Below are positions 3,476 to 58,829 of a stretch of 64,000 nucleotides of DNA, piece by piece (within the stretch, counting starts at the first letter, position 1; every line of letters begins with the position of its first letter). The position numbers and the translations under genes are program-made. The stretch spans positions 11,296 through 75,295 of the IMG/VR virus record IMGVR_UViG_3300043442_000893, one strand, 5' to 3'. The DNA is from a virus. Its lineage: Duplodnaviria > Caudoviricetes. The notes beneath the pieces were generated by a model. That model was not told the origin of the DNA. It searched no databases and saw nothing but the letters and a program-made list of their open reading frames with translations.

Positions 3476-3988
3476 ATGAAACAGTGTATTAAGTGTGGCG
3501 TTTTAAAAGAGCCTCGCGAGTTCTACAAGGAAAAGCGAGTGGTAGATGGGCTCACTGCTCGATGCAAATCTTGCATGAAAAGCGATGCTTCTATGAGTTA
3601 CTCGGACAGGAAGGAAGAGGTAGCGGCTAGAAACAAGGAAAACTATTGCTCCCGCAAGGCGAAGGACAAGGCTTTGCGTAATAACTATGGAATCACGCTA
3701 AGGCAATGGGAAAATATTTTTGATAGCCAAGGGTGCAAGTGTGCGATTTGCGGAAGCACAGAGCCTAATCATGCGAGTGGACAGTTTGTTGTTGACCATT
3801 GCCACGAATTTGGTCAAGTGAGAGGAATTTTATGCGGACATTGCAATATCATGCTCGGACATGCGAAAGACGACATCAACACTCTCTTCGCAGCCGCGAT
3901 GTATTTAGTGAATAACTCCACCCCCGAATCAATCCAAGAACGAAAAGCGAAGCTTAAAGAGCTAAACGAGAACTTTGCGCTATATTGA
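3476..3988 (+). CDS. Endonuclease VII-family (HNH-like) endonuclease, probably homing type
   Basis: N-terminal CxxC..CxxC; YGIT; QGCKCAICG; VVDHCH; VRGILCGHCN. Confidence 0.9.
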   Translation: MKQCIKCGVLKEPREFYKEKRVVDGLTARCKSCMKSDASMSYSDRKEEVAARNKENYCSRKAKDKALRNNYGITLRQWENIFDSQGCKCAICGSTEPNHASGQFVVDHCHEFGQVRGILCGHCNIMLGHAKDDINTLFAAAMYLVNNSTPESIQERKAKLKELNENFALY

Positions 3989-4171: not shown

Positions 4172-4239
4172 GGCCCTGAAGTGTTGGCACACGTCATGCA
4201 GATAGCATGGAATACTGGGTTCGATTCCCAGCAGCGCCT
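4172..4239 (+). tRNA. Degenerate tRNA-like element, nominal anticodon GAT (Ile)
   Basis: Acceptor GGCCCTG/CAGCGCC (one C:C mismatch); D arm GTGT-tggc-ACAC; anticodon arm TCATG-cagatag-CATGG; T arm CTGGG-ttcgatt-CCCAG. Confidence 0.6.
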
Positions 4240-5357: not shown

Positions 5358-5374
5358 CCATCAGTGTAGCAAAG

Positions 5375-5448
5375 TGCCCGAAGCAGGATTTGAACCTGCG
5401 CTGGAGGACTTTTAAGGTCCTGGCCTCTTCCAATTGGGCTACTCGGGC
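5375..5448 (-). tRNA. trnL: tRNA-Leu (TAA) with short variable loop
   Basis: GCCCGAG/TTCGGGC acceptor; D loop with GG; AGGAC-cttaaaa-GTCCT; GCAGG-ttcaaat-CCTGC; discriminator A; CCA not encoded. Confidence 0.88.
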
Positions 5449-16432: not shown

Positions 16433-16741
16433 ATGACCAAGAAAGAAAAGCAGGCAAAAATTGCCAAAGTAATGCGCGAATTTAAAGCTGGAAAGCTCAA
16501 GGGGAGTGATAAAAAGCCCGTAACGAATCGGAAGCAGGCAATTGCTATTGCTCTTTCCGAGGCCGGCATGTCGATGAAGGGTAAAAGCGATGCGTACATT
16601 GATGCCTATATTGACACCATGATGTGCATGGAAGTGGAAGAACCGGAAGAAGAGAATGGAATGGAAGAGGAAATGGATGGGAGCTGTGAAAAAAAGCGCC
16701 GAGGGGAGACGCTGAAAGCTTCTCCCCTCCTGCTGCCGTAA
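16433..16741 (+). CDS. Small basic/acidic head-region protein (0-frame product)
   Basis: KIAKVMREFKAGKLK...VTNRKQAIAIALSEAG phage domain followed by an acidic linker. Confidence 0.8.
   Translation: MTKKEKQAKIAKVMREFKAGKLKGSDKKPVTNRKQAIAIALSEAGMSMKGKSDAYIDAYIDTMMCMEVEEPEEENGMEEEMDGSCEKKRRGETLKASPLLLP
16690..16729 (+). promoter_or_regulatory. -1 programmed frameshift signal
   Basis: In-frame A_AAA_AAG (16690-16696); stem GAGGGGAGA/TCTCCCCTC (16701-16729); upstream GGGAG. Confidence 0.8.
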
Positions 16742-17049
16742 GGAGCGCTGCCCGTCGTGGCTTAGAACTACGCAAGAAGCACGGTAAAGGCGGCTTGACG
16801 ACGCAGGAGGCGGGGAAGCAAGGCATTGGTAGTGGCGTGGCAAGAGCTGGCGATCTTGCTGGCGGCAGTAAAATTAGCTATGCCACCATCAAGCGCATGT
16901 CTGCATTCTTTTCTCGCCACGAAAAGAACAAAAGCGGAGGAGAGAATGATGCTGGATATATTGCTTGGCTTTTATGGGGAGGCGATGCCGGGAGGGCATG
17001 GGCAAATCGCATCATTAAGATGGTAGAAAGTCGAAACAAAGATCAATGA
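16690..17049 (+). CDS. -1 frame extension of the 16433 gene, a conserved phage head-associated domain
   Basis: Open frame APRGDAESFSPPAAVRSAARRGLELRKK..GVARA..TIKRMSAFFSRH..GYIAWLLWGGDAG; closed upstream by TGA 16687; no start codon before the domain. Confidence 0.8.
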   Translation, partial: KKAPRGDAESFSPPAAVRSAARRGLELRKKHGKGGLTTQEAGKQGIGSGVARAGDLAGGSKISYATIKRMSAFFSRHEKNKSGGENDAGYIAWLLWGGDAGRAWANRIIKMVESRNKDQ

Positions 17050-23057: not shown

Positions 23058-23317
23058 AAATCGACTATTTATGGAGCGCTGACAATACAGTGCATGCCAT
23101 TAATTGCTTAATTGATGGCGCTGCTTTAGAAGTGGGCATCCTTTGTCTTGTTTCTTGCAGAGAAACGACCATTAGAATAAGCAACGAAAATCATTCAATG
23201 CTGATTGAAGTGCCACCAGAATTTCGCTCTTCTCACGAGCGAGTGAAGGTGTTCAACGCATTGTTAAACATTCTCGATCATGAGCAAATACAGCTTCCTA
23301 GTTCAAACCAAGACTGA
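23054..23317 (+). CDS. Hypothetical protein
   Basis: ATGA-coupled ORF. Confidence 0.6.
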   Translation: MKIDYLWSADNTVHAINCLIDGAALEVGILCLVSCRETTIRISNENHSMLIEVPPEFRSSHERVKVFNALLNILDHEQIQLPSSNQD

Positions 23318-23813
23318 AGGCTATTTCGAGCTGCTGCCCGAAATCCGCCTGAAGAAATATGGCAGTTGGCTTGTCACTGAATCCATTGAACAGGAGGAGA
23401 TCAGCAAGCTGCAAAGCCAAGCTACCATTCGTGCCGTTCAGCTCGCAAAGCGCATTGCTGCTTCGCGTGAGATTCCTCTAGATGAGGCTTTTGCGCTGCT
23501 GCAGGGCGGTGGCTCCATTTCAGAAGCCGAGCTGCTCTCTGAGTTCACAGAGGAGACACTGAGCATGATCACCAGCGGATCGTCAGTAGAAGCCACTAAT
23601 GCTCGCATGGTTACGGCCTTCATTCGCTCTCGTGGGCAGGGTCTCATTGATGGCGAATGGCAGGATCTTGGCGACTGGGAGATTGAAGACACCAAGAATC
23701 TTCCGCGTAAAGCCATTGCAAAAGTGGTTGAGTTTATTGCTGAAGAGCAAAATGCCGAGACGCAGGAGGTTGCAGAAGCAAAAAAGGCGACAAAGAGGAA
23801 TTCTCCTCAATAG
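23280..23813 (+). CDS. Tail assembly chaperone (gpG-like)
   Basis: Upstream of tape measure; in-frame A_AAA_AAG at 23780-23786. Confidence 0.8.
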   Translation: MSKYSFLVQTKTEGYFELLPEIRLKKYGSWLVTESIEQEEISKLQSQATIRAVQLAKRIAASREIPLDEAFALLQGGGSISEAELLSEFTEETLSMITSGSSVEATNARMVTAFIRSRGQGLIDGEWQDLGDWEIEDTKNLPRKAIAKVVEFIAEEQNAETQEVAEAKKATKRNSPQ

Positions 23814-24253
23814 CAGAAAAGCTTGAAGCACGGGCTAGGCAACAGCTTAAGAGCCTGACAGATTGGAACGAAATCTATTTCAGGCTCTCAGCTTCCGACT
23901 TCAAGGACGAGCGATGGAGTGCCAAAAAATTTGGCCTCCAGAAGCTTGACGACGTTAAGCGTGCCTTGAAATATCTTGATCGCCATGACATTGCAAAATA
24001 CAATGTTGCGAGTGTTGCCGTAGCCAAGCTTGGCACTATGGCAGCAGGGATGATGGCGGGAAGAAAGAGCAAAGTGAAGCCTGAGGATTTCTTGCCGTTT
24101 GATACCAAGCAGCTCAAGAAAGAAGATGGCGTTACGGATGCAAGCTTGATTGTTCTACAGCGCTTGATGAAGACGAGAAGAATGGACGGGCGCGTTATTG
24201 CACTGCTTGCCGATGAGATGAAAGCTTTTGCTGGACGTAATCAAGAGCAATGA
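23780..24253 (+). CDS. Tail assembly chaperone -1 frameshift extension (gpGT-like)
   Basis: -1 frame is open from the slip site (GDKEEFSSIAEKLEARAR...) into ORF 23966-24253; hairpin GAGGA-attc-TCCTC 8 nt downstream. Confidence 0.82.
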   Translation, partial: KKGDKEEFSSIAEKLEARARQQLKSLTDWNEIYFRLSASDFKDERWSAKKFGLQKLDDVKRALKYLDRHDIAKYNVASVAVAKLGTMAAGMMAGRKSKVKPEDFLPFDTKQLKKEDGVTDASLIVLQRLMKTRRMDGRVIALLADEMKAFAGRNQEQ

Positions 24254-24287: not shown

Positions 24288-27200
24288 ATGGCAGCTCAAG
24301 ACGCCGAACTGAAGCTTAAGGTAAGTCTTGACTTGGGATTTTTTAGGCAACAATTAGCAGGACTTGGACAAGCTGCGGCTGGATATAATCTTCCCGTAAG
24401 AGTGCAGTTTGATCGTCGCTCTGTACAAAACGAGCTTAATGCTCTTGGCGCAAATATTCGACGGAGAAATTACAGGCTAACTGTCGAAACAAATTTATCC
24501 GCTGAAATAGCAAAAGCAGATACTCTCGCCAGAAAACTTGGAGAGCTTAGCGGAAAGCTTAAAGCAACTCGCGGAGGGGGTGGAGTAGCACAAGGTCGAG
24601 AAGCAATATCTCAAATCGAAGAGGTATTACGAGGAGGCCTTTCGGGGCGTGCATTTGGCATCCAAAAAGCTCAAGAAAATATTGCAAAGCAAGCAATTTT
24701 ATCTCGTCTTGAAAAAGCTTCATTGAGCAAAGGAGGCTATAACACAGCAGGTCTTGAAAAAATTATTCGTGATCTTGGTGGCACTCCAACTGGCGGTCGC
24801 AAGGATTTAGTTGCACAAGCTAAGAAGCTTGTAGAAGAAAGCAATGGTATCACGGATGCCGTTTTCGACAATTTAAAAGACTTACAGATGAAGCTTCGTC
24901 CAATTCGTGGACAAGCTCAAACGAGCGCTGCTCGTTCAATGCCCAACCTCAACCAGATGTTGGATCGCATTGCAAATCTTACAGAAAATCCTCGCGCAGT
25001 ACAGCGTATGCTGCGAATGATGCCTGAAAGCAGGCTCACAACTGATCTTATTGGCGCGGCCAATAGGCAGGCTGCATTTAGGGAGCAGTATGGCGCGCAG
25101 GGATTCAGACTTCCTGGCTTTGGAGGAGCAAAAGCTTTTGATCCTCTTTTGAAGAGCATTGCTGAAAGTTTTTCAGATTACACCCGCACTGTAAATACTT
25201 CCAATCCATGGATGGGGAAAATTGGCAGTGGCATTACCACTCTTATTAGTCGAGCATTAACGCAATCCCCTGAACAAATGTTTGGAGGCAGGGCTCCCGT
25301 CGCAAGTGCAAAGCTTTTACCTGCGGCAGGACAAACTAGCGGAACTCGCTTAATGCGCGAACAACTTGAGAGAGCAAATCTTCCTCTTCTTCAGGCCCCT
25401 AGCGTCGGCCAAGAAAATGCACCCTTAAGTAGAGCCGCCACTTATATGCTGAATAGGGCTCGACGTGCGTTAGAGCTTCCGATTGGCCCGTATTCTCCTT
25501 ACGAGCCGAATCCCTTTGCTGGAAGAGCAACGGTACCAAGTCGACAATATTTTACGCCAACAATGCAAGCTGCATTGCCGCCAGTAGGCGCAACCGGCGG
25601 ACGACTAAGCTTATTAGAGCAGCAATTAGCTCAGTCTCGCGGCGCGTTTGGGACAGGAGGTGGAGTCGCTGGCTCTTTATTTACTGGTCGCGCACTTATA
25701 AATCCTGGCGTATCAATGCTTTCGCCAGTTGGTATTTCTGGGAACTATAGGCAAATGGCCGCTGCTTTAGCAAATCAAGCAGCTAATCCTGCGTTGGCAC
25801 ATCGACAAATTGCAGACATTGGCTTCGGAGGCGTTCCAACTGCTGCCACGGGGATGTCTGGAGAGGCATTGAATCGGGCTTTGAATCAAGCTTTCCTGCA
25901 GCGCAGAGGGCTTGGTATTGGAGGCGGGCAATCATTGCCTATTTTCAATGCTCCCGGCGTAGCAGTGCAGCAAAATATCCCCGGCATGGCTTACCAAATG
26001 GGAGGCGGTGGACTGGGAGGGTCAATGGGAATGTTCCCAAGTGCGGGAATGATGGGGCCATCAAGCCCGTTGACGATTAATGCTCAGAGCAGCATGTTTG
26101 GCGGTGGTGGAGCTATGCCCCCTGGGGGAGGAGGCGGTGGCGGCGCAGGAGGAATGGGCGGCATGGGCGGCTTTGGTCGTGCATTGGGAGGCGTTAATCT
26201 TCCTGGCGCAGGAGCCATTCGTGAGCTTGGTGGAGAATTTGCTTTTGCCACACAACAGGTGTTGCTTTTTGGTCAAGCGTATAAATTATTAGCATTTGTT
26301 CAGAATTTTCCAGCGCAAGTTGGAGAAGCGGTTAGTCAACTGCAAAGCTTCAGAAATACATTGAATAGCGTCACTGGAAGCGCCGAAGAAGCGGGCGACG
26401 CTAATGAATTTATTCTTGCGGCAGTTGAAAAATACAATATTCCGTTGCAGTCAGCTCGTGATGGCTTTGTGAAGCTTTTTGCTTCTATGGAGCCAGCCGG
26501 ATTTGCTGCAGGCGAAATCCAGAACCTATTTCTTGGTATTACAAAAGCTGCTGCCACTTATGGCTTGAGCGCAGACAAGGTTGATCGTGTAAATTATGCA
26601 TTTGCTCAAATGGCGAGCAAAGGCCAAGTCATGAGCGAAGAGCTTAAAGGACAACTTGGCGATGTATTGCCAGGAGCCATGGGTATTTTCGCCGAAGCTG
26701 CTGGCTTTACAGGTCCAGATGCCATTCAGAAATTCAACAAAGCCCTTGAAGATGGTGTGTATAAAGGCGGCGAAATGCGCAAACTTTTAAAAAACGTAGC
26801 GGATGGCATGAATAAAGAATTCGGGCCTGGCGCAGAAGGAGCCGCCAAAACATTCCAAGGCTCAATCAATCGCATGCAAAATGCAATCAAGAGCTTTTAC
26901 GAAAGCTTTGAGCCTGCTGCCATTAGCGTGCTAAATCAAGTGGCGGTACCCTTGGTTAGTACACTAAAGAATATTACAGCCGGCATAAATGCTTATTTTC
27001 AGGGACAAACAGCAGCTACGCCAGAAGCTCAAAAATTTGCAAATGCCTTGCAAGTAATTGTGCCAGTAATTAGCGGCATCGCTAAGAATGCTGCAATTGT
27101 TGCCACTCAATTAGGATTAATGGCTGGAGTGTTTGGCTCTGCTGCCATTCAGATTGGGAGACTATTGGCTCTTCCCATAGTTGGCTACCTCGCGTCGACT

Positions 27201-30029
27201 TATGCGCAAGTTTTAATTCTGACTACTGCTTTTAATTTCCTTGCGAAAAGCGCCATTGGTGCTGCTATAGTTGCAATCTCTCAATTTATCGCGAAGGGCA
27301 TTGTTTATGCGCAAGTATCGCTTGGCATGCGTGTTGCCACGCAGCAAACGACCGTAGCAATGTATCAGTTTGGCACAGCAGTACAAACTGTAATGATTAA
27401 GACTGTCATTGGGATTGCCCTTGTTGCAATTAGTGCTTTAATTGCAAAATTTGTGGAACTTCAGAATGCCATGGCATCAGTGTCTGGCCAATCTAGGCAA
27501 ATGCAAGATGCTGCTAAGGCATCCGCAAAAATGGGCGACGTAGCAGGCGTCAAGGAGGCAATCGGAAATATGGAAGATCGAGTACAAACTTATAAAAAAC
27601 TTAAAGGAGAGCTTGATAAAGTAATTGGCGACGAGCATACTTATGGCTTTTACCGTGAAATCCCGTCTGCATTGGCAGGAGAATTAATGTCGCTAGGACT
27701 TATAGTAGAAAGTTCAATGAGAAAAGTCGGGGCTGGGTATAAAGTCAAAATAGGTGACTTGCGAGATGCTTATAATTTAGCTACGAAAAATGTTTCCGAA
27801 TTCAATAAGGCTATCGATAGTTCTCAAGCACTTGTTGGTCAAGCGCAGAAGAAAAATCAGCAACTTAAGCAGCAAGGAGTTGTCACAGGAGCGGCAGAAA
27901 GCGATCCTAAAGCGCTAGCAAAAGCAGCGGAAGATGCTCGCAAGCTTGCCGATGACAAGCGCAAGTACGAAGCCGATTTAATGAAGATTGGCTCTCAGCA
28001 AGCTATAAATTTAAATGAAATGGAGTTTGACCATTGGAAGAATCTACAACAGGCAAAATATGATTTTCTCGAAGCTGGTCAAAATGAATGGATGAGTAGA
28101 GAGCTGAAATTTCAACGCGATCTTCAAGCGATTGAAATTCGCAGAATTGAAGCAATTCGCAAAGCTCGCATTGAAACCGTCAAAGCGGAAACAGATGCGC
28201 AAGCAAGCGCTTATATAGCGGGAGACTCTGGTGTTGGCGGGGGTGCCGCCATGTTCGGCGCTACTGGGAGAGTTTTCAATGCCCCTGGCTGGGTGCATGG
28301 TCATTTCCAAAACATGAACCGAGAGGCATTGGTTCAAGATACTGTTGAAGTGGTAATGAAGCTTCTGCAGCAAGGTGTTAAGCCTGAGTTGGGTAGCGGG
28401 CAAAAATTCACCGCTGGAATGCAGCAAGCTCAAGTGGAGCAGCTAGTGCGTCGTGGCATTGCTTCTCATAAATCGTACGCGAGTGGAGTTGGAGCTATTG
28501 ATGTGTTTGTTCCTCAAGGAACGCGAGTGCCCGTTGGCTTGTCAGGAGTGAGCAATCTCGGTGGCGCCGCTGGTGTTTCCGGGAATCTGCCTCGTGGCAC
28601 GCAATTAATGCACCTCGATCCCAGCTCGCGCTCTGGAGCGGCTGGTGCAGCGCCTGTTGGAGTGCCTGCTTCAAGAATAAGAGCAGAAGCGAAGAAGGAT
28701 TACGCTTCGGCGCTTGCAAGTCAAGAAGCAATTAATGCGAAAGAAAAAGAAAATCTTGCCACTAAATATGCAAATATTCAGGCACAGCAAGAGCTTAATA
28801 TTCTCATTCGAGAATACACTGCTTCTATTGTTCCTGTAGAGCAGCAAAAGCTTGAAAATACTCTCTTGCAAAATCGCATTAGTTTAATCTCGTCTGGAGC
28901 GTTTGGAGATGCCCTTGAGACTGAGCAGAAAATTGGCGAAGCCAGAGAAAAAGCTGCTCTTGGCGTGCAAATGGCCAATGCTCAAATAGAGCAAAATAAC
29001 AGGCTAGTGAAAGATGGAATTATCAAGCAAGAAGAAGCAGATAAGCTAAATGCTTCTCAAGTGGAAAAGATTAAGCAGCTCACTCAGGGGCTTGAAGCTT
29101 ACATCCCACTGCTAAGAGAAAGACTGAAGCTTGAGCAATCAAGTGCAGAAGCTACTTTGCGTGGTGAAATCACTCGCGCCACTCCACTGGGAGGCATGGG
29201 TCTTTCTGCTGGTTTTATTGGTCCTGCTGGTGACAGGTTTGAAGAGGCGATTGGTCGTGGAGCCACGCAAGACGAAGCGTCCCGTTTCGCTGAATTACAG
29301 AATCAACTTACTCTTCTTGAGAGCAGAAATGAAGCAATCAAACAATCTATCTATGGCATTGGCAATGCTTTTGGCGAAGCTTTAACTGCTGGCGTAGCAA
29401 GCCTCGTTTCCGGCACTGCTACCGCTAAAGAAGTATTTGCAAGCTTCTTGCAAAGCGTTGGACAAGCGCTGTCTCAAGCAGCTTCGCAAATGATTGCCAC
29501 TTATATCGCCATTGGCATTGCGAAGATGTTTGCTGGTCTTGGCGGTGGCGGCGGAAATCCAGCAGGTAGCGGAGGAGGTATTTCAGATAGCCTTCCTGGA
29601 ATACGACAATACGCAGGAGGCCTTGGAGGAGGTGGAGCACCCGGATCTATGCCTTTTGCGCCACCTGCGTTTGCCAATGGCGGCATTGTTACCGGCCCCA
29701 CGCTTAGCCTCATTGGCGAAGGCAAATACAACGAAGCTATTGTTCCCCTCCCGGACGGTCGTTCCATCCCTGTGCAGCTTGGTGGTCGTTCTGCCCGTGA
29801 CCTCATGGGCAATGGCGTCCCAGGCATGCCTCAAGCGCCTTCTCTGAGCATGAAGTTTGAAACGACTAAGATTAATGGCGTAGAATACGTTAGTAGAGAA
29901 CAATTAGAACAGGCAATGGCAGAAACTCGTCGCGCTTCCATTGCAGGGGGTGCTCAACGAGGCATGTCAATGACGCTCGATAAGATTAAGCAAAGCCCTT
30001 CCACTCGCTCTAGTATTGGTATCCGCTAA
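24288..30029 (+). CDS. Tape measure protein with embedded peptidase-like domain
   Basis: 1913 aa, Ala/Gly-rich; QMASKGQVMSEELKGQLGD tape-measure domain; FANGGIV..P...IGE. Confidence 0.93.
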   Translation: MAAQDAELKLKVSLDLGFFRQQLAGLGQAAAGYNLPVRVQFDRRSVQNELNALGANIRRRNYRLTVETNLSAEIAKADTLARKLGELSGKLKATRGGGGVAQGREAISQIEEVLRGGLSGRAFGIQKAQENIAKQAILSRLEKASLSKGGYNTAGLEKIIRDLGGTPTGGRKDLVAQAKKLVEESNGITDAVFDNLKDLQMKLRPIRGQAQTSAARSMPNLNQMLDRIANLTENPRAVQRMLRMMPESRLTTDLIGAANRQAAFREQYGAQGFRLPGFGGAKAFDPLLKSIAESFSDYTRTVNTSNPWMGKIGSGITTLISRALTQSPEQMFGGRAPVASAKLLPAAGQTSGTRLMREQLERANLPLLQAPSVGQENAPLSRAATYMLNRARRALELPIGPYSPYEPNPFAGRATVPSRQYFTPTMQAALPPVGATGGRLSLLEQQLAQSRGAFGTGGGVAGSLFTGRALINPGVSMLSPVGISGNYRQMAAALANQAANPALAHRQIADIGFGGVPTAATGMSGEALNRALNQAFLQRRGLGIGGGQSLPIFNAPGVAVQQNIPGMAYQMGGGGLGGSMGMFPSAGMMGPSSPLTINAQSSMFGGGGAMPPGGGGGGGAGGMGGMGGFGRALGGVNLPGAGAIRELGGEFAFATQQVLLFGQAYKLLAFVQNFPAQVGEAVSQLQSFRNTLNSVTGSAEEAGDANEFILAAVEKYNIPLQSARDGFVKLFASMEPAGFAAGEIQNLFLGITKAAATYGLSADKVDRVNYAFAQMASKGQVMSEELKGQLGDVLPGAMGIFAEAAGFTGPDAIQKFNKALEDGVYKGGEMRKLLKNVADGMNKEFGPGAEGAAKTFQGSINRMQNAIKSFYESFEPAAISVLNQVAVPLVSTLKNITAGINAYFQGQTAATPEAQKFANALQVIVPVISGIAKNAAIVATQLGLMAGVFGSAAIQIGRLLALPIVGYLASTYAQVLILTTAFNFLAKSAIGAAIVAISQFIAKGIVYAQVSLGMRVATQQTTVAMYQFGTAVQTVMIKTVIGIALVAISALIAKFVELQNAMASVSGQSRQMQDAAKASAKMGDVAGVKEAIGNMEDRVQTYKKLKGELDKVIGDEHTYGFYREIPSALAGELMSLGLIVESSMRKVGAGYKVKIGDLRDAYNLATKNVSEFNKAIDSSQALVGQAQKKNQQLKQQGVVTGAAESDPKALAKAAEDARKLADDKRKYEADLMKIGSQQAINLNEMEFDHWKNLQQAKYDFLEAGQNEWMSRELKFQRDLQAIEIRRIEAIRKARIETVKAETDAQASAYIAGDSGVGGGAAMFGATGRVFNAPGWVHGHFQNMNREALVQDTVEVVMKLLQQGVKPELGSGQKFTAGMQQAQVEQLVRRGIASHKSYASGVGAIDVFVPQGTRVPVGLSGVSNLGGAAGVSGNLPRGTQLMHLDPSSRSGAAGAAPVGVPASRIRAEAKKDYASALASQEAINAKEKENLATKYANIQAQQELNILIREYTASIVPVEQQKLENTLLQNRISLISSGAFGDALETEQKIGEAREKAALGVQMANAQIEQNNRLVKDGIIKQEEADKLNASQVEKIKQLTQGLEAYIPLLRERLKLEQSSAEATLRGEITRATPLGGMGLSAGFIGPAGDRFEEAIGRGATQDEASRFAELQNQLTLLESRNEAIKQSIYGIGNAFGEALTAGVASLVSGTATAKEVFASFLQSVGQALSQAASQMIATYIAIGIAKMFAGLGGGGGNPAGSGGGISDSLPGIRQYAGGLGGGGAPGSMPFAPPAFANGGIVTGPTLSLIGEGKYNEAIVPLPDGRSIPVQLGGRSARDLMGNGVPGMPQAPSLSMKFETTKINGVEYVSREQLEQAMAETRRASIAGGAQRGMSMTLDKIKQSPSTRSSIGIR

Positions 30030-54238: not shown

Positions 54239-54555
54239 TTTTCGTTCATGTCCCAGAAATAGTCGCAGCCTTCTTCATCGCATGGAGGCGCAGCGAAATA
54301 GCTCTGCCAGCGACTTGCAGGCGCCATGTAGCGCCAACAATTTTCTTTAATAGGGCATTCGCCCCCCAAGCACATCGCAATGTCAGCCATGAGAATAGTT
54401 CGAGCAGTTTGACGGAGGAATTGCTTATCAACCAAAGGATGATTAGCAATGGTCTCAAGAACAGCAGCAATACGACGATCACTGCTAAGCGTGTCTTCAG
54501 GAAAGCTCCAGAACGCTTCATGACAAGCATCAATTAGAGAGCGACGATTCTGCAC
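54235..54555 (-). CDS. Hypothetical protein with Cys-rich C-terminal domain
   Basis: DIAMC.G..CP.KE.C.RY...QSYF..PP....C.YFW small phage domain; start uncertain. Confidence 0.65.
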   Translation of the reverse strand: MQNRRSLIDACHEAFWSFPEDTLSSDRRIAAVLETIANHPLVDKQFLRQTARTILMADIAMCLGGECPIKENCWRYMAPASRWQSYFAAPPCDEEGCDYFWDMNEK

Positions 54556-54742
54556 GCTTTTCTTCCATTGTTTCGTATTCTTCAACCATGGTTGCCATTG
54601 CAGCCATTATTGAAGTTTCAAAGAAACCACAGGCCAAAACAAATTGCTTGAAATGCTCAACAATTTCAGGACAATAAATGTTATGGAATGAATAGGAAAC
54701 CTTGGTTTCTCCTTCTTCGTAAAGAAAGGTGAACCGGCTCAT
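54530..54742 (-). CDS. Hypothetical protein
   Basis: MSRFTF...F.QF..ACGF; ATG at 54742. Confidence 0.6.
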   Translation of the reverse strand: MSRFTFLYEEGETKVSYSFHNIYCPEIVEHFKQFVLACGFFETSIMAAMATMVEEYETMEEKRAESSLSN

Positions 54743-54879
54743 GGAAGAATCAGCGAAAGGATAGAGAGAATCGACAGGGCAATGATCAGGCATACGAAGG
54801 TAACGAGAAGGAACAGGCCAAGAGGATCATTCGCCAAATAGGGCGGGAGGAAGCTCAGTAATGGGAATGGCATCATCAT
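54739..54879 (-). CDS. Small membrane protein (about 46 aa)
   Basis: Long hydrophobic helix LGLFLLVTFVCLIIALSILSILSLIL; ATGA-coupled to the next gene. Confidence 0.45.
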   Translation of the reverse strand: MMMPFPLLSFLPPYLANDPLGLFLLVTFVCLIIALSILSILSLILP

Positions 54880-54943
54880 CAATGCAAACTGCTCCAGCAA
54901 AGGCCCGCGCTAAGCGGGCCGCTGCCAGGTCTATTGCTTTTTT
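54827..54943 (-). CDS. Predicted -1 frameshift extension of the SSAP
   Basis: A_AAA_AAG at 54943-54937; GC hairpin downstream; -1 frame AIDLAAARLARAFAGAVCIDDDAIPITELPPALFGE*. Confidence 0.6.
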   Translation of the reverse strand, partial: KKAIDLAAARLARAFAGAVCIDDDAIPITELPPALFGE

Positions 54944-55884
54944 GCTACGAAAGCTTTCATGCCTTCAATAATGGCGGCAGTATCTTCAAGGCCGCGCACG
55001 GCATTGATTTCTTCAGTCATTTCAGCTTTGCTGATGACAATTTGCTCCTGCTTGGCCCATAGCGTCATCATTGCTGCGACGACGTTTCCGAAGGCTTGCC
55101 AGCTTTTGACTTCCGTGGCGCGAGCAAGTCCAATGCTTTCAAGAGCAGCTTTGCCTGCAGCCATAGAAGCTTTCTCGTCGGCATAGTTCAACGGATTGGC
55201 TTTGCAAACTGCTGTGAGAGCTGCTTTTGCGTCGAAGGGCTCAGCGGACCCTGTATCGGCGGCGGCAGTAGCCCCTTCCGCTCCAGCATCAGAAGTGCCA
55301 CCAGTAGTTGCCGTCGCATCCTTCTTGGCCGCACGAGCAGGCTTTGGGACATCTTGCTGCAGCGCCGGTTTCGGCGCTTCTTCTTTAGGGATGTCTTCTC
55401 CGGCATAGAGCCGAAGACCAAGGCCCGTGAACGTAGCAATGGCCTTGACGCTCGCACGTTGGATGTTGTCGCTAATGGCACGACCATCAAGCTGCTGAAT
55501 GGAATTGTGCTTCCTGTCCATCACGGGGAACACGAGAGCAGGCGTGCGACGCACGCCGTCTGTGAGATAGGGACGAAGGATGAAAGCGCCAGGCTCGCCA
55601 AACACAGGCCAGCCAATAGTCTTCTCTTCAAAGGCCACGAAGAGCGTCGGGAAATGCTCCTTCAGATAGCGGAAGGCAAAAGGCCACGACAGGTAGGAAA
55701 GGCCTTTGTAGTCCTTTTCAATGTGAGGTCCGATGTCAGGCGTATCGTAAGCAGCGCGAAATGCTTCAGCGCTGATTTCGAGCGGAGTGAACATACCAAG
55801 AGAACGTTCAATCATTGCTTGTTTTGCGGGATCTTCCATGCTGGAAAAGTCGGAGGGGGAATAGGTGAGGATGGCGTGATTCAT
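54931..55884 (-). CDS. Single-strand annealing protein, Sak3/DUF1071 (Rad52-like)
   Basis: IEK...LSYLSW..A, PVMD.K.N.I, I...IQRA.VKAIA..GLGL.LYAGEDIP. Confidence 0.88.
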   Translation of the reverse strand: MNHAILTYSPSDFSSMEDPAKQAMIERSLGMFTPLEISAEAFRAAYDTPDIGPHIEKDYKGLSYLSWPFAFRYLKEHFPTLFVAFEEKTIGWPVFGEPGAFILRPYLTDGVRRTPALVFPVMDRKHNSIQQLDGRAISDNIQRASVKAIATFTGLGLRLYAGEDIPKEEAPKPALQQDVPKPARAAKKDATATTGGTSDAGAEGATAAADTGSAEPFDAKAALTAVCKANPLNYADEKASMAAGKAALESIGLARATEVKSWQAFGNVVAAMMTLWAKQEQIVISKAEMTEEINAVRGLEDTAAIIEGMKAFVAKKQ

Positions 55885-56771: not shown

Positions 56772-58829
56772 ATGGCTTTTTCCATCCTCGAACACCTCGC
56801 CAAGCTGGAGCCGAGCGACCATGCAGGCAAATACATCTGCCCTGCATGCGGTGGCAACGATCTGTCCGTGAACGAAGGGAACGGAGCATATAACTGCTTC
56901 AATGACGACAGTCCGAAGCATCGCGCAGAAATTCGTAACATTCTTGCGCCGCTAGAACGTTGGGAGCGCCCCATGCGTGAAGCACGGCGCTATTCGTTCC
57001 CCTATCAAAACCGCAATCGCGAAGACGTGATTATCGTCACGCGAGACGATAGTTCTGGAAAGAAAAGCATTTCTCAGGACTATCCCACTGCAAACAATGC
57101 CAATGGGAAGCGTTCTGAAATTGTTAAGCAGTTAAGAAAGAACATCCTTCCCTATCGCTATTACGATGCCATTGAAGCGTCAGCAGCTTCAGGCCTCCCC
57201 ATTTTTATTGTTGAAGGTGAACTGACTGCCGATAGGCTTTGGGAAATCGGCCTGCCCTCTAGTACGTTTCTTGGCGGCAGCGGACAATATCGTGCGAACG
57301 GCGACTATTCGCAACTGTTTCGCGGGCAGAAAGTAGTCCTATGTCCTGATCGTGACGAGCCTGGCGTGGCTCTCATGAAAGAAGTGGCTGCAGACAATCC
57401 CAATGCGCAATGGTGCTATGCAGAACCAAGCAGCTTTGAATGGGACAATCTGCCTCAGAAAGGAGGCTACGACTTAGCCGATTGGCTTGATGATGGGGCC
57501 GATCAAGATGCCATTCTTTCCTCCATCGTTTCAAAGGATAGGCACGAAGGTAAAGACGGACTTCCTTCTTACGAGGAGATCATTGGCACATTCGAGCGCA
57601 TGGTTGGTCTCTACAACAACGATGCTCGCATTGCCTATGAAGCTCGCCAGTGGATGGACGCTCATGGCGTCAAGCTGAATGCGCAAGAGATTGATAAGTT
57701 GCTTTCTGAAGCACGTGGTCGCGTGCATGGCAAAGAGGAGATGGAAATCCTCGATGCAAAAGCCATTGCGCAGTCTGAAGATTCAAGGAAGTGGACCATC
57801 GCAGGCATTCTTCCTGAAAGCAGCGTGATGCTGCTTGCTGCAGCTCCTGGTAGCGGCAAAAGCACGATCGTCTACAACTGGGCTCTGCACGTTGCCACTG
57901 GCAAAGACTGGAGCAATCGTCGTTGCAAGAAAGGAAAAGTGCTCATCATTCAATGCGACGAGCCCGTTGTTGATGCTGCAGAAAAGCTGCAAATCATTGG
58001 TTATGACGATGATGCTCTGAGTAATGGTCAAATTGATTTCATTGATCGCTGGCGTTTTAGCAACATCCCACAGCTCCTTTCCTACGTACAGCGCAACCAG
58101 CCTCAGCTCATCATGATTGATAGTCTCACTTCATGCCTAGCCGGCATGGACGTAGACCTAATCCGTTCTGATGCTGGTAATTGCATCTACGAATTGCGCG
58201 ACATTGCCAATCAATATGGTTGCTCCATTGTCATCCTTCACCACTTGAACAAAAGTGGTGGCATTCGTGATAGCTCCAGCTTTGAAGCCAACGTTAGTGA
58301 AGTGGTGAAACTGTATCGCACTGACAACAATCCTGATTCAACGCAGTTCATGTTTGAATGGACCAAGAGCCGTAGTGGCTTGGCTGGTAAGCATTTCATG
58401 CAGCGTGATCCTGCCACTTATGGCTGGTATTACAAGGGTCCTGCAGTGGGTGGCAATGAGAGCATGGACAATCTTGTCAATATGCTCAATTCTCGCAAGC
58501 ACGAGCGTTTCGACAGGAAGAGCGCTGCTCATGCTGCTGGAGCATGGGACGATGTGAGCATCGGGCGCCTGTTGGAAGTGGCACGTCGTCAAGGTCTTAT
58601 TGACACCAGCTTCATTGTTGGTCCCAACGGCGAGCGTACCAGGATGTATCAAAGCTGGGCCTACGAGGCTCCTGACATTGATTTTCAGGCAACGCCAACT
58701 TTCACGGAAGTTGAAAATCAGGCAAATGAAAATATTCCCGAGCAGGAAGAGGCTCCTCAGAATGAGCCTGTTTCTGCTGCTGCCAATGAAAATCTTCCCG
58801 AAGGGGAAGATGATGATGAGTGGTTCTGA
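56772..58829 (+). CDS. Primase-helicase (Zn ribbon, TOPRIM, RepA/AAA_25 SF4-like helicase)
   Basis: CPACG..C; IVEGE..AD; PDRD.PG; D..DW; AAPGSGKS; MIDSL; ILHHLNK; KSR. Confidence 0.9.
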   Translation: MAFSILEHLAKLEPSDHAGKYICPACGGNDLSVNEGNGAYNCFNDDSPKHRAEIRNILAPLERWERPMREARRYSFPYQNRNREDVIIVTRDDSSGKKSISQDYPTANNANGKRSEIVKQLRKNILPYRYYDAIEASAASGLPIFIVEGELTADRLWEIGLPSSTFLGGSGQYRANGDYSQLFRGQKVVLCPDRDEPGVALMKEVAADNPNAQWCYAEPSSFEWDNLPQKGGYDLADWLDDGADQDAILSSIVSKDRHEGKDGLPSYEEIIGTFERMVGLYNNDARIAYEARQWMDAHGVKLNAQEIDKLLSEARGRVHGKEEMEILDAKAIAQSEDSRKWTIAGILPESSVMLLAAAPGSGKSTIVYNWALHVATGKDWSNRRCKKGKVLIIQCDEPVVDAAEKLQIIGYDDDALSNGQIDFIDRWRFSNIPQLLSYVQRNQPQLIMIDSLTSCLAGMDVDLIRSDAGNCIYELRDIANQYGCSIVILHHLNKSGGIRDSSSFEANVSEVVKLYRTDNNPDSTQFMFEWTKSRSGLAGKHFMQRDPATYGWYYKGPAVGGNESMDNLVNMLNSRKHERFDRKSAAHAAGAWDDVSIGRLLEVARRQGLIDTSFIVGPNGERTRMYQSWAYEAPDIDFQATPTFTEVENQANENIPEQEEAPQNEPVSAAANENLPEGEDDDEWF

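Follow-up and report, generated by a model that had tools for sequence, protein, structure and literature searches.

The annealing-protein gene of a cyanosiphovirus related to cyanophage S-CBS4 ends in a -1 frameshift signal, and the -1 frame beyond it encodes a short tail under coding constraint, as comparative sequence analysis of related loci has established. Programmed -1 frameshifting at the end of this gene is, on these comparisons, very probable. The same type of analysis supports, with hhalign and not with HMMER, a resemblance of the tail to a conserved motif near the C-terminus of picocyanobacterial DnaX, suggesting a plausible mimicry of tau that would recruit the alpha subunit of host Pol III. 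The features are collected in Table 1, and their positions refer to the window, the whole stretch of 64,000 nt of phage DNA that was analysed.

Table 1. Predicted features at the 3' end of the annealing-protein gene and downstream of it.
Feature	Position	Strand	Description	Basis
Annealing-protein gene, 0 frame	54931..55884	minus	317 aa, Sak3/DUF1071 family, stop TAG 54933-54931	
Slippery heptamer	54937..54943	minus	A_AAA_AAG (X_XXY_YYZ), 0 frame	sequence and conservation
Spacer	54929-54936	minus	8 nt, contains the 0-frame stop	RNAfold
Hairpin	54894..54928	minus	7 bp + 1x1 internal loop + 7 bp GC core, 5-nt loop	RNAfold, covariation
-1 frame extension	54827..54937	minus	36 codons + TGA (54829-54827)	
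DnaX-like stretch, tail residues 2-29	54851..54934	minus	IDLAAARLARAFAGAVCIDDDAIPITEL aligned with DnaX IDDQAKRLADFFNGEVVQLD--GPLPEL	
Small ORF, 0 frame of the annealing-protein gene	54739..54879	minus	46 aa, one hydrophobic helix, MMMPFPLLSFLPPYLANDPLGLF...	
Next operon gene	54530..54742	minus	70 aa, MSRFTFLYEEGETK..., start coupled to the small ORF stop	

The annealing-protein gene and its slippery 3' end

The annealing protein matches PF06378 as its sole family in the Pfam search (E 2.1e-19, 70 bits against a cut-off of 22.3) and phrog_8492 over its full length in PHROG (E 2.5e-47, residues 16-316), while its MNH... start is kept across relatives. The first-pass annotation had labelled it Sak3-like, and the label is correct, because PF06378 is equated with DUF1071 and the Sak3 clan in the available excerpt of PMC8093625. 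In the AF2 monomer model, a five-helix C-terminal domain (residues 215-317) is predicted with confidence and the N-terminal domain with low confidence. A structure search with the C-terminal fold returned generic helical matches (best Z 5.6) and no clear structural match; no Red-beta-like match was seen in the same search, an absence that does not exclude one.

A primase-helicase gene adjoins the annealing-protein gene, and an exonuclease gene is always located a few genes downstream. The complete phage record of 75,295 bp contains no DNA polymerase of family A, B or C (PolA, PolB, Pol III alpha), no SSB family and no match to TIGR02397 (DnaX), so that the earlier statement that the window lacks a DNA polymerase holds and extends to the whole record. 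The phage is a cyanosiphovirus, and we infer its host from its relative S-CBS4.

The comparative set consisted of 82 related loci with 51-99% protein identity, representing 56 distinct sequence contexts. Two of them, L083 and L084, were added to the other 80 by a scan of genome contigs, whose third locus, L085 (Fusobacterium), was left out because it matches the N-terminal domain only. Both added loci lie on short MAG contigs, labelled Rhodobiaceae and Verrucomicrobia, and carry the same phage module, so these taxon labels were taken as doubtful binning. The heptamer, the hairpin and the tail all recur at the annealing-protein gene of S-CBS4 (gp079), where the RefSeq record leaves the site unannotated and gives a plain CDS with no slippage flag.

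The gene ends with ...GTA GCA AAA AAG CAA TAG, confirming from the sequence and its ORFs the in-frame A_AAA_AAG that had been noticed near the gene end. Its conservation in related phages is complete: AAAAAAG is invariant and in frame in 82/82 loci (56/56 distinct contexts), the two lysines are always encoded by AAA AAG, and the codon before them always ends in A, whereas the wobble base three nucleotides upstream of the heptamer varies freely (A16/C15/T12/G13). The 0-frame stop comes 0-1 codon past the heptamer in the 80 loci. On both strands of the window, AAAAAAG occurs four times versus 24.9 +/- 5.3 copies expected from 100 dinucleotide-preserving shuffles, all of which had at least four. 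Three of the four copies are in frame within the last 2-15 codons of ORFs, and each of these has a -1 ORF of 36-155 codons beyond it and a hairpin 5-8 nt downstream, recognised by reading, with RNAfold applied to the 54943 site only. One of them, at 23780, has the identical GCA AAA AAG and occupies the position of a tail assembly chaperone gene just upstream of the 1913-aa tape measure gene. The presence of the heptamer at three ORF ends and its avoidance elsewhere suggest that A_AAA_AAG is probably highly shift-prone in picocyanobacteria.

Downstream of the heptamer, RNAfold predicted a stable hairpin (MFE -30.1 kcal/mol over the 91-nt stretch that holds it). Its core, GGCCCGC-ttagc-GCGGGCC, begins 16 nt from the heptamer, and the base of the extended stem lies at 8 nt, in agreement with the earlier estimate of about 8 nt. 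Over the 56 contexts, the mean dG was -25.3 kcal/mol and the mean z was -4.3 against mononucleotide shuffles. When 14 pairs were followed in 28 sequences, 92.1% of cells were paired versus 81.8% after shuffling (0/500 shuffles reached this value), with compensatory changes at five pairs (35 cells, 28 sequences). In relatives with a plain-hairpin fold, the spacer is 7 nt, or 4-5 nt in the AAG-TAG group; counted to the first paired base, it ranges over 0-13 nt across all 56 folds. The hairpin is weak or absent in L041, L049, L083, and L084. No conserved upstream Shine-Dalgarno-like stimulator was seen among the related loci. Contigs from four RNA-library runs lie on both sides of the site without indels, bearing in mind that contigs drop rare variants; they end at either edge of the palindromic stem (54925/54928 and 54896/54899), and we take these ends for breaks in the assembly; DNA may also be present in these libraries.

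Coding constraint in the -1 frame

Reading in the -1 frame from G54937 gives AIDLAAARLARAFAGAVCIDDDAIPITELPPALFGE, letter for letter the 36-aa peptide described in the first-pass annotation, followed by a TGA stop, and the predicted trans-frame product has 316 + 36 = 352 aa. The 80 loci hold 55 distinct tail peptides of 32-36 aa, and the tails of L083 and L084 are 28 and 23 aa long. Over the first 99 nt, stops interrupt the -1 frame in 3 of 58 distinct sequences and each of the other frames in 58/58.

Selection on the tail differs between its two parts. For codons 2-20, dN/dS was 0.30 in the -1 frame versus 0.78 and 1.79 in the other frames, while for codons 21-36 it was 0.88 in the tail frame and 0.48 in the frame of an overlapping small ORF. 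Pooled over the whole tail, the values of 0.52 versus 0.63 and 1.67 make a weak discriminator, and dN/dS discriminates only once the tail is split at the start of the small ORF. Because the last ~15 codons overlap this ORF and are weakly constrained, the constrained tail appears to comprise roughly the first 20-25 residues. The -1 frame is thus conserved as protein over codons 2-20 and weakly over 21-36. Tail columns D3, A5, A7, F13, G15, and P25 never change while their third codon positions vary, and the hydrophobic columns hold T at codon position 2, including within the hairpin loop. The constrained part reads as a short Ala-rich helix, an F-x-G element, a hydrophobic strand, and an acidic patch.

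The ATGs of the overlapping small ORF are formed by tail codons D20-D22 (GAT GAT GAT G), and its stop codon shares an ATGA with the start codon of the next gene. Its membrane-protein pattern (..FLP.YLA.DPLGLF.. and a hydrophobic stretch) is kept in most loci and is missing in S-CBS4-like loci. The 70-aa gene that follows is conserved in relatives, and is present yet unannotated in S-CBS4. Neither of the two has a PHROG match.

An in-frame fusion of annealing protein and tail was found in none of the 82 loci, nor among the nine matches of the tail profile in 1.84 billion representatives or the three matches of a word-indexed search. The matches of these searches that lie outside the loci (P0005-P0008, P0011) are Ala/Gly-rich repeat proteins. 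Searches of the tail against Pfam (E <= 10), PDB sequences (E <= 10), and ESM Atlas returned chance-level rows only. A mimic of the RecA N-terminal helix-strand was also considered for the tail and dropped, with no RecA among the PDB-sequence matches at E <= 10.

Resemblance of the tail to the C-terminus of DnaX

The first-pass annotation had pointed to a motif at the extreme C-terminus of cyanobacterial DnaX. The motif exists: among 120 picocyanobacterial DnaX homologues, a narrow clade chosen without use of the motif, 120/120 carry LIDDQAKRLA[DE]FFNGEV..LDGPLPEL near the C-terminus; it is not at the very end, however, as 3 to ~25 residues follow. The profile search against DnaX C-termini that had been proposed gave a divided answer, supportive with hhalign and not significant with HMMER. 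In the hhalign comparison of the tail with picocyanobacterial DnaX, 26 columns aligned at 50% identity with a score of 19.1 and a P of 4e-4, at an hhalign probability of only 35%, and 0/200 column shuffles reached this score (maximum 17.8). The motif of proteobacterial DnaX, the true counterpart of the cyanobacterial motif, scored 14.5 against it, below the score of the tail. The tail also aligned with the proteobacterial motif (score 12.9, P 0.0045, reached by 1/200 shuffles), for which four sequences (L086, L089, L102, L108) that were run-off, short or motif-less had been removed.

The register between tail and DnaX is gapless over the first 25 positions, and D3, F13, G15, and P25, out of six columns that are invariant in the tail, are identical to invariant DnaX residues. 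At column 14, N, the DnaX residue, recurs as an alternative to A, while DnaX has conserved Q, K, F, and V where the tail has A5, A7, A12, and C18. The PITEL/PLPEL part of the match falls where the overlapping small ORF dominates selection.

HMMER searches with the tail profile found no DnaX among the nine matches at E <= 0.001 in 1.84 billion representatives, and the word-indexed search found none at E <= 10. Against 42 picocyanobacterial DnaX proteins, the profile gave -3.8 to 6.1 bits (best i-E 0.023), which is not significant; the best match lay on the motif in 37 of the 42, which had been chosen by the motif. In the reverse direction, the tail ORF ranked second among 2372 six-frame peptides searched with a DnaX C-terminal profile (E 0.76). 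The tail HMM scored at or below 0 bits against 32 proteobacterial DnaX genes, no better than reversed controls. Nucleotide identity between tail and dnaX is 26/66, so there is no sign of a recent capture of dnaX.

According to the available excerpt of PMC1888804, alpha binds E. coli tau at its extreme C-terminus; this C-terminal region is unstructured until bound and has pM affinity for alpha as part of the whole domain V, and even low expression of free domain V kills E. coli. Severe phenotypes of the tau mutants L635P/D636G are described in the excerpt of PMC11869525. Alpha binding by the cyanobacterial motif is known only through this analogy with E. coli.

Proposed mechanism, alternative explanations and significance

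Most ribosomes would stop at the TAG and release the 317-aa annealing protein, and a fraction would slip back one base on A_AAA_AAG, held by the downstream hairpin, and add the tail to give the 352-aa product. The constrained part of the tail would copy the motif that is conserved near the C-terminus of the host-type (picocyanobacterial) DnaX, and how often ribosomes shift would determine the proportion of tailed subunits. Within the annealing oligomer, which would resemble the rings formed by relatives in the family, a minority of tailed subunits may dock the host Pol III core onto annealed recombination intermediates, giving a phage that has a primase-helicase and lacks a polymerase a start for recombination-dependent replication; the tail might also compete with host tau for alpha. 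We infer from sequence that ribosomes produce the longer form, that this form binds alpha, and what would follow from such binding, and tau mimicry recruiting Pol III alpha is plausible on these grounds. A frameshifted annealing protein with a DnaX-mimic tail that docks host Pol III is the best overall explanation, held by us with intermediate confidence. More tentatively, and with some doubt on our part, the annealing oligomer may be a landing pad independent of the clamp loader, which plugs the Pol III core onto annealed 3' ends, serving as a dedicated initiator of recombination-dependent replication, and also draws alpha off host replisomes as part of host takeover. The lethality of free tau domain V (PMC1888804, excerpt) would explain why the phage makes such a mimic by recoding, in substoichiometric amounts, and not as an in-frame fusion.

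Several readings would make do without ribosomal frameshifting. The hairpin might be a terminator, an attenuator or an RNA-stability element, with the -1 frame open through the GC-rich stem and the overlapping gene. Such a reading fits a GC-rich stem followed by UUU, the large share of the -1 ORF that is covered by the hairpin and the small ORF, the dominance of 0-frame selection in the overlap, and the whole-tail dN/dS of only 0.52. On the other hand, the heptamer is invariant even at synonymous sites, dN/dS is low in the -1 frame only from the stop to the small ORF, the second-position T is invariant in the hairpin loop, the peptide is kept in L041 and L083 where the hairpin is lost, and the match to DnaX would go unexplained. 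The U's sit in the extended stem, since the core is followed by UUUGCUGG, which RNAfold pairs within it; the full stem does not run directly into U's as the GC stem of an intrinsic terminator does, a consensus scan (at least 5 T in 8) found no minus-strand terminator at the hairpin, and the ATGA overlap couples the downstream genes. The earlier caveat that the hairpin is merely a terminator is unlikely, because no U run lies past the full stem and the downstream genes are translationally coupled, and we regard the absence of recoding as very improbable. RNA polymerase might instead add one A in the A6 run and so lengthen the protein; an extra A in the mRNA gives the same frame and the A run is invariant, but the run is only A6 followed by an invariant G, while efficient transcriptional slippage sites have ~8-9 or more A or T. 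A conserved hairpin 4-8 nt downstream (in plain-hairpin folds) has the geometry of a ribosomal stimulator, and the RNA-library contigs contain no inserted or deleted letters, although contigs drop rare variants. We regard such transcriptional slippage as very unlikely. Least credible of all is that the tail ORF forms a small gene by itself, on which ribosomes would initiate independently or re-initiate past the TAG. Metagenome gene callers do list stand-alone ORFs of 36-77 aa (P0001-P0004, P0009, P0010), and L041 has GTG as first codon; however, the first -1 codons of the loci compared (GCA ATA, GCA GTA, GAA ATA, GCC ATA, GTA GAT, and GTG ATT) and their surroundings show no conserved start codon, the called ORFs all start in variable upstream -1 sequence and run through the heptamer KK, and upstream of the heptamer the -1 frame is open for only 6-90 codons.

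A different question is whether the frameshift is real and the tail serves some role other than binding Pol III alpha, its likeness to DnaX being chance or convergent helix/F-x-G/strand chemistry. Candidate partners would be the phage exonuclease, the primase-helicase, host RecA, SSB or another partner of the DnaX C-terminus, or the tail might change oligomer assembly. All of the frameshift evidence fits such a role, the HMMER similarity to DnaX is not significant, and the exonuclease gene always lies a few genes downstream. Other annealing proteins use their C-terminal regions to bind different partners: in the excerpts available, C-terminally truncated Red-beta anneals and cannot recombine (PMC5052646), and a Red-beta-like C-terminal domain is common to annealing-protein clans (PMC8093625). 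Against it stand the pre-specified hhalign comparison (P 4e-4, 0/200 shuffles), the match of D3, F13, G15, and P25 to invariant DnaX residues in one gapless register, and a phage without a polymerase. We consider another role of the tail possible, though rather doubtful, and prefer the docking of host Pol III.

The proposed system can be set beside known ones. According to the excerpt of PMC5009743, the tau/gamma frameshift of E. coli dnaX uses the heptamer A_AAA_AAG with a downstream stem-loop stimulator. The phage site shares both, and one gene would again give two products that differ by a C-terminal alpha-binding region, in the phage a predicted look-alike. In E. coli dnaX, however, shifting shortens the protein, which thereby loses its alpha-binding end, whereas in the phage it would extend a different, annealing protein and add a look-alike of that end; the phage site also lacks a conserved Shine-Dalgarno-like stimulator and has its 0-frame stop 0-1 codon away. 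Like the alpha-binding motif of tau, the tail would stand at the C-terminal end and combine a helix, F, G/A, a hydrophobic strand, acidic residues and a proline, but the annealing protein has no AAA+ module or domains III-V, shares the terminal motif only and is no homologue of DnaX, and the conserved Q, K, F12, N, and E of DnaX are Ala in the tail. The G/GT frameshift of tail assembly chaperones in tailed phages (Xu, Hendrix and Duda 2004, cited in the excerpt of PMC6316719) is likewise a conserved phage -1 shift that yields a short protein and a C-terminally extended one in fixed proportion, as proposed here, and the same phage has a candidate for it at 23780 before the tape measure gene; unlike G/GT, which serves virion assembly, the present site lies in a recombination/replication module and would add only 36 residues. 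Red-beta and other annealing proteins also combine an N-terminal annealing core with a C-terminal part, on which recombination in vivo and contacts with proteins depend (PMC5052646 and PMC8093625, excerpts), yet Red-beta-type domains are in frame and on every subunit. The gp40 helicase of SPP1 recruits the host replisome through DnaX and DnaG, according to the excerpt of PMC6316719. Both phages would capture host Pol III through the tau/clamp-loader system without a polymerase of their own, but the SPP1 helicase binds tau, while the annealing protein would imitate tau and bind alpha directly.

In recombineering, as in the recombination-dependent replication of phages, it has long been asked how phage annealing proteins connect with the replication fork. 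To our knowledge, the contacts of annealing-protein C-terminal domains are with exonuclease and the SSB tail, and not with a polymerase. Our literature search, which included the available part of the Atkins 2016 review, found no programmed frameshift in a recombinase gene, so the present one, if true, would be the first reported. S-CBS4 and its host Synechococcus sp. CB0101 form a cultured pair, in which the hypothesis is testable at once. If true, the phage would be a new example of copying a short interaction motif of the host, and its recoded, tau-like isoform would tie annealing directly and physically to the replicative polymerase.

The annealing-protein gene and the replication module

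The virus record that contains the window is 75,295 bp long, carries direct terminal repeats and is estimated to be complete. DNA polymerases of families A, B and C are absent from the whole phage record, in agreement with the first-pass annotation, and the phage must therefore rely on a host polymerase; no SSB-family protein was found in the record either. The annealing protein matches PF06378 in Pfam (E 2.1e-19) and phrog_8492 in PHROG ("Sak-like ssDNA annealing protein", E 2.5e-47, residues 16-316). Its initial description as Sak3-like is correct, because PF06378 is equated with DUF1071 and the Sak3 clan in a published account (PMC8093625). Its nearest named relative, at 59% identity, comes from Synechococcus phage S-CBS4, which infects Synechococcus sp. 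CB0101; this protein, gp079, is annotated in the RefSeq record as a plain CDS. In the AF2 model, residues 215-317 form a C-terminal domain of five helices predicted with confidence (pLDDT 82-92), whose final helix extends to the last residue of the 0-frame protein; a structure search with this domain yielded no clear relative (best Z 5.6).

The C-terminus of the divergently transcribed primase-helicase is acidic and finishes in aromatic residues (...PEGEDDDEWF), a pattern that resembles the C-terminal tails of SSB from bacteria and of replication proteins from T7. By this likeness, the replication module may have a further docking peptide here. The phage encodes no tRNA-Lys alongside its tRNA-Ile(GAT) and tRNA-Leu(TAA).

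Positions of the annealing-protein locus, the candidate frameshift sites and other features in the window
Feature	Position	Strand	Description
Annealing-protein gene	55884..54931	-	317 aa
Heptamer A_AAA_AAG	54943-54937	-	in frame with annealing-protein gene
Extended hairpin	54928..54894	-	7+7 bp stem, 1x1 internal loop
Stop of -1 frame (TGA)	54829-54827	-	end of tail
Small ORF	54879..54739	-	46 aa, one hydrophobic helix; 0 frame, conserved
PD-(D/E)XK exonuclease			downstream of annealing-protein gene
Primase-helicase	56772-58829	+	AAA_25, phrog_239
Candidate frameshift, heptamer 16690-16696	16433-17049	+	GAA AAA AAG, 14 codons ahead of stop of 102-aa ORF
Candidate frameshift, heptamer 23780-23786	23280-24253	+	GCA AAA AAG, 8 codons ahead of stop of 177-aa ORF
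tRNA-Ile(GAT)	4172-4239	+	
tRNA-Leu(TAA)	5374-5448	-	

Conservation of the heptamer, the hairpin and the -1 frame

The annealing-protein gene ends in GTA GCA AAA AAG CAA TAG, and translation in the -1 frame from the heptamer gives the tail AIDLAAARLARAFAGAVCIDDDAIPITELPPALFGE, as originally read from the sequence. A scan of IMG/VR returned 116 relatives, from which 80 loci were kept; two run off the contig before the gene ends, and the remaining 78 (one duplicating the S-CBS4 record, one cut within the tail) were compared with S-CBS4 and the window, giving 80 loci, or 82 with two MAG contigs. The latter, labelled Rhodobiaceae (L083) and Verrucomicrobia (L084), carry this same phage annealing-protein module, heptamer and tail included, and are probably phage contigs binned into bacterial genomes. 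The heptamer is present and in frame in all 82 loci, with the 0-frame stop 0 or 1 codon later, and its seven bases are unchanged across all 56 distinct sequence contexts. The codon ahead of the heptamer (GCA, TCA or GTA) has A in third position in every case and AAA AAG encodes Lys-Lys throughout, while the wobble base one codon farther upstream varies freely (A16/C15/T12/G13 in the 56 contexts), which places the constraint on nucleotides rather than on protein.

The GC stem noticed about 8 nt downstream was recovered by RNAfold as a GGCCCGC/GCGGGCC core within a longer stem, whose base lies 8 nt from the heptamer in the window. Plain-hairpin folds have a spacer of 7 nt, shortened to 4-5 nt if TAG abuts AAG; in folds with additional pairing of flanking bases, pairing begins 0-5 nt past the heptamer. 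Over the 14 stem pairs in 28 diverse sequences, 92.1% of cells are paired, compared with 81.8% in shuffles (0/500 reach the observed value) and 38-52% when the partner strand is slid out of register; compensatory double changes occur at five pairs (35 cells). One of them (CGG to AGG, opposite CGC to CTC) is synonymous in the -1 frame, which shows an RNA-level constraint in addition to the coding constraint. The 50 nt past the heptamer fold with a mean energy of -25.3 kcal/mol; relative to mononucleotide shuffles, z averages -4.3. In two loci, L041 and L083, the hairpin is lost and the tail peptide retained.

The -1 frame also behaves as coding sequence. The 80 loci yield 55 distinct tail peptides of 32-36 aa, and the two MAG contigs, L083 and L084, add tails of 28 and 23 aa; within the first 99 nt only 3 of 58 distinct sequences, those with short tails, have a stop in the -1 frame, compared with 58/58 in each other frame. 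At columns D3, A5, A7, F13, G15 and P25, codon positions 1-2 are invariant and position 3 varies; at the hydrophobic columns 2, 9, 17 and 26, T is kept at position 2 and position 1 varies, one of these T bases being invariant inside the hairpin loop. The whole-tail dN/dS of 0.52 is ambiguous, and was resolved by a split at the ATG of the small ORF, which three-frame translation of every locus had revealed. For tail codons 2-20, dN/dS is 0.30 in the -1 frame against 0.78 and 1.79 in the others; for codons 21-36, it is 0.48 in the 0 frame against 0.88 in the tail frame. The expected conservation as protein thus holds for the first 20-25 residues, which are the constrained tail; the remainder is weakly constrained.

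The small ORF (starting MMMPFPLLSFLPPYLANDPLGLF) overlaps the 3' half of the tail; its ATG codons arise from tail codons D20-D22 (GAT GAT GAT G), and its stop codon shares bases with the start codon of the following gene (ATGA, 54742-54739). Since its start is traversed by ribosomes in the -1 frame, frameshifting might influence its translation too. The small ORF is not present in S-CBS4-like loci. In S-CBS4 (L001, NC_016766), the homologue of the window gene 54742..54530 is unannotated (3490-3785), and the record has instead, on the other strand, gp078, a hypothetical gene of 31 codons.

These comparative patterns make a programmed -1 frameshift highly probable. The first-pass annotation had cautioned that the stem could be just a terminator; however, the downstream genes are tightly coupled, no U run follows the full extended stem and a consensus scan called no minus-strand terminator there, so that termination is disfavoured. 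The absence of recoding is very unlikely. Transcriptional slippage at the heptamer is likewise a quite improbable source of the tail. Independent initiation of the -1 ORF is scarcely credible, because no start codon is conserved among the compared loci; on the upstream side of the heptamer, the open -1 frame spans only 6-90 codons.

The distribution of AAAAAAG serves as an internal control: the 64-kb window contains it only four times, compared with an expectation of 24.9 +/- 5.3. Three copies, all in frame as X_XXY_YYZ, fall in the final 2-15 codons of an ORF and are followed by a long -1 ORF; the fourth is not within any ORF. At the 16690 site, the 0-frame part shows a weak match to a head maturation protease family, the -1 ORF of 117 codons matches phrog_2859 (E 6.4e-17), and an inverted repeat, GAGGGGAGA/TCTCCCCTC, was seen by eye from 5 nt downstream. 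The 23780 site occupies the classical tail-assembly-chaperone position: its -1 ORF of 155 codons ends just ahead of the 1913-aa tape measure gene (24288-30029). PHROG gave no match for either part, and an inverted repeat was seen by eye 8 nt past the heptamer; among the three sites, folding was computed for the 54943 hairpin. The phage thus seems to employ this one heptamer also at a conserved frameshift of a well-established kind, and to avoid it otherwise.

Resemblance of the tail to cyanobacterial DnaX

A tail profile searched against 1.84 billion representatives gave nine matches, none of them DnaX (five were this -1 ORF, listed separately as a small gene, and four were repeat proteins), and searches of Pfam, PDB sequences, Atlas and a word-indexed "longer" search found nothing. 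The DnaX motif named in the first-pass annotation was back-translated into a degenerate pattern of an estimated 42 bits, so that few or no chance matches were expected, and was found in 92 stretches of metagenome contigs. In 45 of 80 fetched loci, an ORF of 500-699 aa contains a Walker A motif and bears the pattern near its C-terminus; the other 35 have no such ORF, mostly showing ORFs below 500 aa, many probably cut at contig ends. The best 120 homologues of one pattern-bearing protein (L125:222-2096) have DnaX Pfam domains, and their source names include DNA polymerase III subunit gamma/tau of Vulcanococcus sp., Synechococcus sp. HK05 and W4D4, Synechococcaceae and Cyanobacteriota. All 120, not selected by motif, carry a LIDDQAKRLA[DE]FFNGEV[VI].LDGPLPEL-like sequence. 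The motif is thus real, but it is not the extreme C-terminus, since 3-25 residues follow.

In a gapless register, the window tail equals the motif at I2, D3, A6, R8, L9, A10, F13, G15, V17, D21 and P25, and four of the six invariant tail columns match invariant DnaX residues. Alignment of the tail (54 sequences) with 61 distinct DnaX C-termini by hhalign covered 26 columns at 50% identity (score 19.1, P 4e-4, probability 35%), and 0/200 column-shuffled controls reached this score (mean 8.75, sd 2.15, maximum 17.8). For scale, a true counterpart, the proteobacterial DnaX C-terminal motif (28/32 genes, one phylum), scored 14.5 against the cyanobacterial motif (P 0.0022) and 12.9 against the tail (P 0.0045; reached by 1/200 shuffles). 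Against the resemblance, HMMER scores are weak: a tail HMM scored -3.8 to 6.1 bits on 42 motif-selected DnaX proteins (best i-E 0.023), its best matches landing on the motif in 37, and with a DnaX C-terminal HMM the tail ORF ranks 2nd of 2372 six-frame window peptides, but with E 0.76. Nucleotide identity between tail and dnaX is 26/66, so any capture would be old, or the likeness convergent.

Proposed access to host Pol III

The resemblance to DnaX is somewhat more likely than not to be functional mimicry; a different function of the tail is a less probable alternative that still carries real weight. According to one study (PMC1888804), alpha binds at the extreme C-terminus of E. coli tau; this region takes on structure only on binding, and even low expression of free domain V of tau is lethal. 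The literature searched contained no description of frameshifting in a gene for an annealing protein or recombinase; recombinase, RecT, Rad52 and cyanophage go unmentioned in the first 300,000 characters of the Atkins 2016 review, whose lone use of "annealing" in that stretch is unrelated. Judged from titles and abstract openings, no phage tau mimic was found in the literature searched.

In the most likely mechanism, a fraction of ribosomes would slip to -1 at A_AAA_AAG, assisted by the hairpin and the adjacent stop, to yield a 352-aa isoform whose tail imitates the C-terminus of host tau. Mixed annealing oligomers would bear a few such tails, which would recruit Pol III alpha to annealed intermediates or rival tau for alpha. 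The entire chain, including binding of alpha by the tail, is evenly balanced between true and false. The nearest known route to host Pol III is that of SPP1, in which the host enzyme is captured via a phage helicase that binds DnaX and DnaG (PMC6316719); unlike SPP1, the phage described here would reach host Pol III through the tail of its annealing protein.
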